From: Eledone cirrhosa
Taxonomy: Eukaryota
Direction of reading: 5' to 3'
Assembly: GCA_964016885.1 (NCBI GenBank)
Contig: OZ024741.1
Span: forward strand, 347,076,001-347,140,000
DNA: 64,000 nucleotides
In this document: in pieces, positions 8,781 to 9,467 of the stretch
How positions within the stretch are numbered: the stretch's first letter is position 1
Layout: every line of letters starts with the position of its first letter
Notes under the pieces: generated by a model
What the model was told of the DNA's origin: nothing
What the model saw: the letters and a program-made list of their open reading frames with translations, nothing else
Databases searched by the model: none
Translations under genes and position numbers: made by a program

Positions 8781-9467
8781 TAAAAACAAATAACGAAACG
8801 AAATTAAATTTCGTTTCGTTTGCAACTCACTTTTGTATGACTGACGCTCAAACAATTAAGTCAAAGATGTACATCCATATATGTATACTGAAATACTAGT
8901 ATGTATATGAATACACACACGTATACATATGTAGATGTACCAAGTTTTTTTCACTGATCACTTTACTGTGAGTGGCCAGCTATTCTGTATGTAAACACAC
9001 AGACAAACCGGTTTTTAGAGTCATACTGGTTTTTGAGGAAACACCTTTCCTCTATTCTCCAGAAAGCCAGACAAGGAATATTGAACTAGTTTCGTTGTTG
9101 TTACAACTCATCAGCAATATTTACCTATCTTCCGGCCTCTCTAGAGAATCGTAAAAGCACATATCGCTATATGCTTTTTCTATGAAAATTAGTAGTGGGC
9201 AGACCAACTTGCATAGAGTGTGAGTAAGTACCGGTTCAACGGAGACGATAAAAACAAATAACGAAACGAAATTAAATTTCGTTTCGTTTGTAACTCACTT
9301 TTGTATGACTGACGCTCAAACAATTAAGTCAAAGATGTACATCCATATATGTATACTGAAATACTAGTATGTATATGAATACACACACGTATACATATGT
9401 AGATGTACCAAGTTTTTTTTCACTGATCACTTTACTGTGAGTGGCCAGCTATTCTGTATGTAAACAC
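8781..9467 (-). mobile_element. Non-coding HHR-containing element, 468-bp unit plus partial tandem copy (retrozyme-like)
   Basis: 8781-8999 is repeated near-identically at 9249-9467 (period 468). The 3' end abuts (TA)n. Terminal and junction motifs resemble the 466-bp array unit at 61410+. Confidence 0.8.
9077..9121 (-). ncRNA. Type I hammerhead ribozyme (canonical core)
   Basis: aatattg-CTGATGA-gttgt-aaca-acaac-GAAA-c-ta-g-TT-caatatt: perfect 7-bp stem I, 5-bp stem II, palindromic minimal stem III. Confidence 0.9.

Follow-up and report, generated by a model that had tools for sequence, protein, structure and literature searches.

The retrozyme copy in the window and its family

The window, a stretch of 64,000 nucleotides from the genome of Eledone cirrhosa, contains a young insertion of a non-coding hammerhead retrozyme, which reads on the minus strand next to a (TA)n microsatellite that served as its target (Table 1). 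The copy consists of 1.47 units of a 468-bp repeat, a full unit followed by a partial one that differs from it by one substitution and one A-run difference. The period of 468 is exact, with a longest exact run of 128 nt, and it becomes 469 past the A-run that is one base longer. The initial annotation had described a 1.47-mer tandem of period 468 at 8781..9467 and had quoted a junction motif, which is indeed present. The tandem and its period stand as described, while the limits need correction: the element starts at 8780 and runs on to 9479 through a short inverted arm, which has one base (9467) in common with the long arm. No protein-coding capacity was found in the copy, whose longest sense-strand ATG frames have 19 and 48 codons, and an LTR arrangement is absent from the units.

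Table 1. Features of the retrozyme copy and of its relatives in the window
Feature	Position	Strand	Remarks
(TA)n microsatellite target	8684..8779	.	
Left copy of 13-nt target-site duplication	8770..8782	+	Last 3 nt overlap the element end
Full 468-nt monomer, subfamily B	8780..9247	-	3' end 8780 is initiation site 1
74-nt 'tail'	8780..8853	-	From site 2 (monomer 394, window 8854) to site 1 (monomer 468); contains the conserved terminal hairpin
3' strand of long-range helix	8835..8842	-	Pairs with 9019-9026; closes the domain holding site 2
Type I hammerhead motif	9077..9121	-	CUGAUGA core starts at 9114; GUU triplet
Octamer-like motif, putative promoter element	9207..9214	-	One change from ATGCAAAT of subfamilies A, C and older B
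5'-truncated partial unit, monomer 250-468	9248..9467	-	End of the long cDNA arm
Inverted second arm, 13 nt, monomer 382-394	9467..9479	+	Ends at initiation site 2
Right copy of 13-nt target-site duplication	9479..9491	+	
Single truncated subfamily C copy, positions 61-420 of a 420-nt unit	25934..26292	+	Ends at site 1 in (TA)n; older subfamily
Subfamily A array, 466-nt unit	61410..64000, on past the window end	-	12.4 units and a 134-nt inverted arm ending at monomer 405

Each unit carries a type I hammerhead motif, as non-LTR retrozymes do, with an Rfam score that stays under the gathering level. Rfam at its gathering thresholds returned no match in the whole window, and a relaxed E-value search found Hammerhead_HH9 at 37.7 bits (E 8.7e-8), below the gathering score of 52. 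The predicted cut falls between 9084 and 9083 on the minus strand of the window copy. This is about 304 nt upstream of the 3' end, in agreement with the position of about 300 nt first reported, but the description as a canonical hammerhead has to be qualified, as helix III has one base pair and a palindromic CUAG loop. Through this palindrome two hammerhead copies are predicted to be able to pair over 6-8 bases. A hammerhead with such a weak helix III likely works as a dimer, by analogy with the axolotl Amex1 motif, which has a similar helix III and is described as cleaving well only in that form (PMC7229834). Having one ribozyme only, the window copy could thus not release a monomer alone.

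The genome surveyed amounts to 3.0 Gb in 1,796 contigs. A ribozyme pattern common to the subfamilies matched 39,556 times genome-wide, versus 2 for the controls, and the exact subfamily-B motif matched 5,142 times with none for its control; of 460 candidate places 33 were scored, and these contain at least 289 monomer matches. As described for non-LTR retrozymes, the tandem units are short, a few hundred bp in length, and are scattered in many copies over many contigs. The family is a non-LTR retrozyme, a class already described and with a published link to Penelope. Subfamily B is young, with many copies 99-100% identical. The kinship that had been proposed between the window copy and the 466-bp array at 61410 onwards is borne out well outside the ribozyme: 319 of 527 aligned columns are the same (60% identity), the B versus A alignment score is 781 as compared to 306+/-29 in 300 shuffles, and in global alignment each of the three segments that lie outside the ribozyme (5', middle and tail) is reached by none of 1000 shuffles (the TA-rich hairpin by 12 of 1000). 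A conserved unit length, which had also been proposed, does not hold. Units measure 465-470 nt in B, 457-538 in A and 420-433 in C, thus 420-538 overall, and the closeness of 468 to 466 is partly a coincidence.

Some observations on the units stand by themselves. The octamer ATGCAAAT, a motif that we take to be linked to snRNA-type promoters, occurs upstream of the ribozyme in 116 of 148 A and C occurrences and in 119 of 573 B occurrences, while 378 B occurrences, the youngest, read ATGCAAGT at this site. The motif is also part of a conserved hairpin, and its conservation may be due to structure. Use of an snRNA-type promoter is described for newt satellite 2 (PMC2220036). The contigs of four sequencing runs hold the unit and its end-to-start joint, the same joint that tandem DNA would give. 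In three runs labelled as three other organisms (X4, X5 and X6), contigs cover the whole B unit with few differences and at low depth, which may reflect related species, diet or contamination.

Arms, ends and targets of the insertions

We read the structure of the insertions from 60 subfamily-B loci, made up of the 33 best-scoring and of 27 picked among the first 100 of the 5,142 matches in their order on contig C1; the latter set requires an intact ribozyme and therefore misses short insertions. The tabulation of end positions, which the initial annotation had suggested, revealed two fixed ends. In 45 of the 60 loci (25 of the 33 best-scoring and 20 of the 27 on C1) two inverted arms are joined 5' to 5', one of them ending at monomer 466-468 (site 1) and the other near 389-398 (site 2), so that the two sites of B lie about 70-79 nt apart. 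The same end site is used twice in none of these 45. Thirteen loci have a single arm, ten with site 1 only and three with site 2 only, and two loci have another end, which in one of them lies at an assembly gap. The older subfamilies end at 466 and about 400-411 (A) and at 420 and about 361-364 (C), with tails of about 56-66 nt, which brings the range for the whole family to 56-79 nt. Genome-wide we counted 2,293 termini at site 1 and 878 at site 2, the latter with a strict pattern and on the forward strand alone. The reverse-strand count is inflated by overlapping matches.

A target duplication of 11-13 nt accompanies 11 of the 16 loci with informative flanks, longer than 4 bp as in non-LTR retrozymes. 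Pure TA flanks hide the duplication in 26 of the 45 two-site loci, and 3 of the 45 are without one. The flanks of subfamily-B loci are TA-rich in 100 of 120 cases. An inverted, 5'-truncated arm together with a tail at one end only, as found in 45 of the 60 loci, is the mark of Penelope mobilisation.

Three kinds of loci deserve separate mention. L034 and L168 have exactly 13 and 7 whole units and no second arm; possibly the inverted arm was lost, or they arose by another route. L103 and L104 together (C1:5738095-5752747) form an arm of 31 units (14 kb), accompanied by a short inverted arm; the units belong to a B variant that has a compensatory swap in helix II of the ribozyme. Finally, a two-arm retrozyme insertion is split by a LINE at L101:3448-8210, whose open frame of 1040 codons covers endonuclease and RT.

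Template and RNA structure

In the 16 loci that have two long arms, divergence is 0.37% of sites within a locus, from one arm to the other, and 3.3% between loci. None of 2000 permutations gave a within-locus divergence as low, and in 14 of the 16 loci the nearest arm is the locus's own. Several loci have private variants that are present in every unit of the two arms. The signal is weaker in the older subfamilies, where the own arm is nearest in 4 of 6 C loci and 5 of 7 A loci. The arm statistics do not include L048, L101 and L114, and four 5' ends were corrected by eye.

The 5' ends of the arms are uniform over the unit (KS p 0.32, n=95), and 3 of them lie near the ribozyme cut site where 4.3 are expected. 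With no gathering at the cut site, a linear cut monomer is not the template. The number of units is unrelated to the length of the partial overlap (rho -0.007, n=75), and 7 arms of at least 4 units have overlaps of less than 70 nt. Genome-wide there are 6,091 internal unit-to-unit junctions versus 2,293 site-1 termini, which fits copying past the cut site and so agrees with the rolling on a circular or multimeric template first proposed; the 1.47-mer from which this had been argued does not by itself separate the two templates. The two-arm, two-site structure and the sharing of haplotypes, both missing from that proposal, are stronger evidence on the template. In the whole sample of 95, 91 arms cross the cut site, a figure biased by the choice of loci and given no weight here. 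Two apparent signals were dropped: an arm-length correlation within loci (rho 0.51 pooled) vanished per sample (p 0.46 and 0.30), and an apparent excess of 5' ends at position 1 was partly due to missed short pieces.

Multi-unit loci hold 79 singleton variants and 12 intermediate ones, present in some but not all units. Variant patterns of period 2 or 3 appear in L043, L061, L166 and L170, and some arrays were lengthened after insertion by block duplication or came from multimeric templates. At monomer position 189 (window 9059), scattered units in seven loci (L048, L155, L159, L161, L163, L164 and L169) have T or A in place of G, and RT errors may be frequent at G189.

The monomer folds at -158.6 kcal/mol with a z-score of -9.5, reached by none of 100 shuffles. 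When folded as circles the sense strands have z-scores of -10.9 and -8.9 and the antisense strands -4.6 and -3.4. In the consensus fold of 27 aligned monomers, a check put forward with the first description, 19 of 72 pairs are altered on both sides, where the rows represent three related clades and the structure was derived from the same alignment. The pairs altered on both sides include ribozyme stems I and II and the long-range helix beside site 2 (helix 8), in which 3 of 7 pairs are so changed among the subfamilies. This covariation supports, rather than measures, a constraint on RNA structure, and the compensatory changes agree with the earlier view of a real mobile element under such a constraint.

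The mover and its template

The retrozyme was very probably moved by Penelope-type machinery. The pattern of two arms and two sites matches the Penelope tail, which is bounded by two RT start sites (PMC11167929), and Penelope elements are described with 5'-truncated arms in inverted orientation and a tail on one side (PMC8557442). Additionally, the autonomous Penelope-like elements in the window share the two-arm layout in (TA)n. On the template we are less confident, and think it probable that a Penelope-like RT/GIY-YIG protein started at the two ends of a staggered break and copied a single circle of monomer RNA. That a Penelope-like dimer docks on the two sites of one ribozyme-made circle, with both active sites rolling simultaneously, is in our judgement an even question.

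On this reading a tandem array would be transcribed, and neighbouring hammerheads would pair through their palindromic helix III and cut out unit-length RNA, to be circularised by a host ligase. A Penelope-like dimer would nick both strands of a (TA)n target about 12 nt apart and so leave two 3' overhangs. One overhang would prime at site 1, which is U-rich and follows the terminal hairpin, and the other at site 2, in a hairpin loop about 70-79 nt upstream. Both enzymes would then roll round the same circle for a variable distance, after which the two cDNA 3' ends would be joined and filled in. What the genome displays directly is the layout of two arms and two sites, the target and its duplication, the haplotypes common to both arms and the random 5' ends.

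Several results count against this reading. These are the 12 intermediate variants and the periodic patterns in four loci, the weaker own-arm signal in subfamilies A and C, the 13 of 60 one-armed loci and the 3 of 45 two-site loci without a duplication, and the tails of 56-79 nt, versus the 30-40 nt described for Penelope elements. The anole element, moreover, is described as needing no ribozyme cleavage in vitro and as using unprocessed RNA (PMC11167929). The comparison of termini with Penelope-like copies and the three ribozyme-pattern searches for an autonomous partner, both given below, weigh in the same direction.

In the main rival reading, which we regard as unlikely, Penelope twin priming took place on an uncleaved linear multimer from a homogeneous array, with later unequal crossing-over and with circles absent or a by-product. 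Cleavage being dispensable for the anole element in vitro (PMC11167929) speaks for it. Homogeneous source arrays would also give both arms the same haplotype, two haplotypes are indeed each found at two loci (L039 with L045 and L044 with L046), and the periodic variants in four loci are block duplications. Against this, many haplotypes are each fixed over all units and both arms, which would need a repeated monomer bottleneck. The excess of singleton variants (79) over intermediate ones (12) in the multi-unit loci, the long arms with very short overlaps and the compensatory changes that keep the ribozyme stems also speak against the linear multimer.

In Xenopus, a resemblance of retrozymes to the terminal repeats of Penelope is described (bioRxiv 10.64898/2026.07.22.740005), and the units might be detached terminal repeats of an unseen autonomous Penelope-like element, with truncated insertions later amplified as satellites. 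The genome is rich in such elements: one RT query gave 37,145 candidates genome-wide, of which a small part was sampled. Terminal-repeat similarity to Penelope-like copies was sought in 24 flanking stretches, as compared to the 37,145 candidates, and none was convincing; a short match to a Penelope-like 3' region covers 23 nt (E 0.014). Three ribozyme-pattern searches of the genome gave no autonomous family with this ribozyme. The patterns with longer and shorter helix II had 150 and 217 matches, mostly mutated retrozymes, and a recurrent minimal-looking hammerhead motif lay inside LINE coding sequence at the one locus inspected. A Penelope-like protein match lies within 2 kb in 19 of 173 partly overlapping records of ribozyme-bearing loci, in a check that covered relatives of four window proteins, and between each of the 19 and the retrozyme lies a (TA)n run of 10 nt or more. 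An RT and GIY-YIG ORF attached to the repeat was found neither in the 173 records nor at the window copy, which agrees with the initial annotation in that the unit is not a terminal repeat joined to a Penelope ORF. With those 19 matches lying across (TA)n runs, arms that run unit after unit without an ORF and sense ATG frames of 19 and 48 codons at most, detached repeats are a very improbable source.

Amplification of a hammerhead-bearing satellite at the DNA level, by fold-back or extrachromosomal circles, would account for arrays of up to 31 units, some of which grew by local duplication, and is still less credible. The polarity of the ends, fixed at 3' and random at 5', largely refutes it, and it is also at odds with folding that differs between the strands, with the target duplications, with copies lying on many contigs and with two different end sites being strictly paired. 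LINE twin priming makes inversions and LINEs with long open frames are present (a 1040-aa frame in L101), but a SINE-like element moved and inverted in this way deserves almost no weight given internal priming at two fixed sites, no poly(A), no shared LINE 3' end, and arms that both point outward and are multimeric.

Comparison with known retrozymes and Penelope-like elements

The closest known relatives are the animal non-LTR retrozymes of Cervera and de la Pena 2020 (PMC7229834). As described there, these have non-coding tandem units with a type I hammerhead in each, low GC, high self-pairing, thousands of copies, duplications of more than 4 bp and co-occurrence with Penelope-like elements, all as here. 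Their RNAs are 170-400 nt, versus units of 420-538 nt here, and expression and circles were shown for them, while the present analysis covers genomic DNA. In the same source the axolotl and newt satellite-2 motif HHR_Amex1 has a one-pair helix III and a palindromic tetraloop and cleaves well as a dimer, and HHR_Amex2 shares with subfamilies A and C a U-U mismatch where helix II begins at its base; the satellite-2 units of 330-350 nt are shorter than ours, and the likeness is one of the motifs as described. The plant LTR retrozyme, with a type III hammerhead in two LTRs and a 4-bp duplication, differs from the type I, tandem units and 11-13 nt duplications found here.

Li, Clavereau and Pollet 2026 (bioRxiv 10.64898/2026.07.22.740005) propose Penelope-like elements as the source and mobiliser of retrozymes with units of 51-972 bp, a range that covers the Eledone family. 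Their proposal is based on co-occurrence and terminal-repeat homology, with arrays formed by unequal crossover and the mechanism called unresolved; in our case an insertion signature is present and terminal-repeat homology is absent from the stretches compared. The words 'tail' and 'initiation' are absent from the text of that preprint, as are 'inverted', 'tail' and 'microsatellite' from the main text of PMC7229834. In the literature searched, which was mostly open-access, we found no description of two-arm, two-site insertion in retrozymes, although the life-cycle figure of PMC7229834 may bear on this novelty.

Among the autonomous elements, PAc of the green anole (Frangieh et al. 2024, PMC11167929) is described with two adjacent internal RT start sites that define a tail, cutting and extension of both strands, AT-rich targets and a predicted dimer, as proposed here. 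It differs from our family in being autonomous, in its tail of about 30-40 nt and in its linear template, with no rolling shown and no ribozyme needed in vitro. The non-autonomous Chlamys elements, MRC1 among them (Craig et al. 2021, PMC8557442), are likewise non-coding, of Penelope type and inserted as multiple head-to-tail copies, but their 3' ends resemble autonomous families and their clade is without canonical hammerheads.

Which enzyme moves animal retrozymes, and whether circles are the templates, is a question left by both papers that define the class. This young family keeps a clear record of each insertion in its two fixed start sites, its 12-13 nt stagger and the one haplotype of each event. 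The signature ties retrozyme movement to the Penelope mechanism that was reconstituted in 2024 and provides exact sites for in vitro tests. If moved by Penelope machinery, a 460-nt RNA would act in trans as its substrate, and circular RNA would give rise to new satellite arrays. If true, twin rolling on one circle would explain in a single step how the Penelope tail and the inverted arms arise and how satellite arrays are born, and the genome would then give direct evidence that circular RNAs of animals are templates of retrotransposition.

One Penelope-like element has its two inverted arms on either side of a two-arm subfamily-C copy (L096:700-2770), which lies exactly between them in (TA)n. 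A Pfam search with 7 ORFs of the window gave RVT_1 only, below its cut-off and on a LINE fragment, with no Penelope match, and the window elements that follow are presumed to be Penelope-like from protein motifs. A young one at 51116-59085, both ends of which lie in (TA)n, is present in tandem copies and has an inverted arm; its tail measures about 97 nt, hammerhead-like motifs are at 51216 (-), 54750 and 58885 (+), and there are many genome copies of 97-99%. A second family at 37930-44496 has the two-arm layout in (TA)n, a tail of about 176 nt and a hammerhead-like motif whose core reads CCGAAGA and whose helix II is long. A Poseidon-type element on the minus strand (567-590 and 2463-4974) has a minimal hammerhead motif near its 3' end. 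Finally, a hammerhead-like core lies at 60171 (-), and long palindromes at 12801-13182, 48512-48739, 50690-51096 and 59784-60405, several of them beside (TA)n, may be two-arm remnants of other families.
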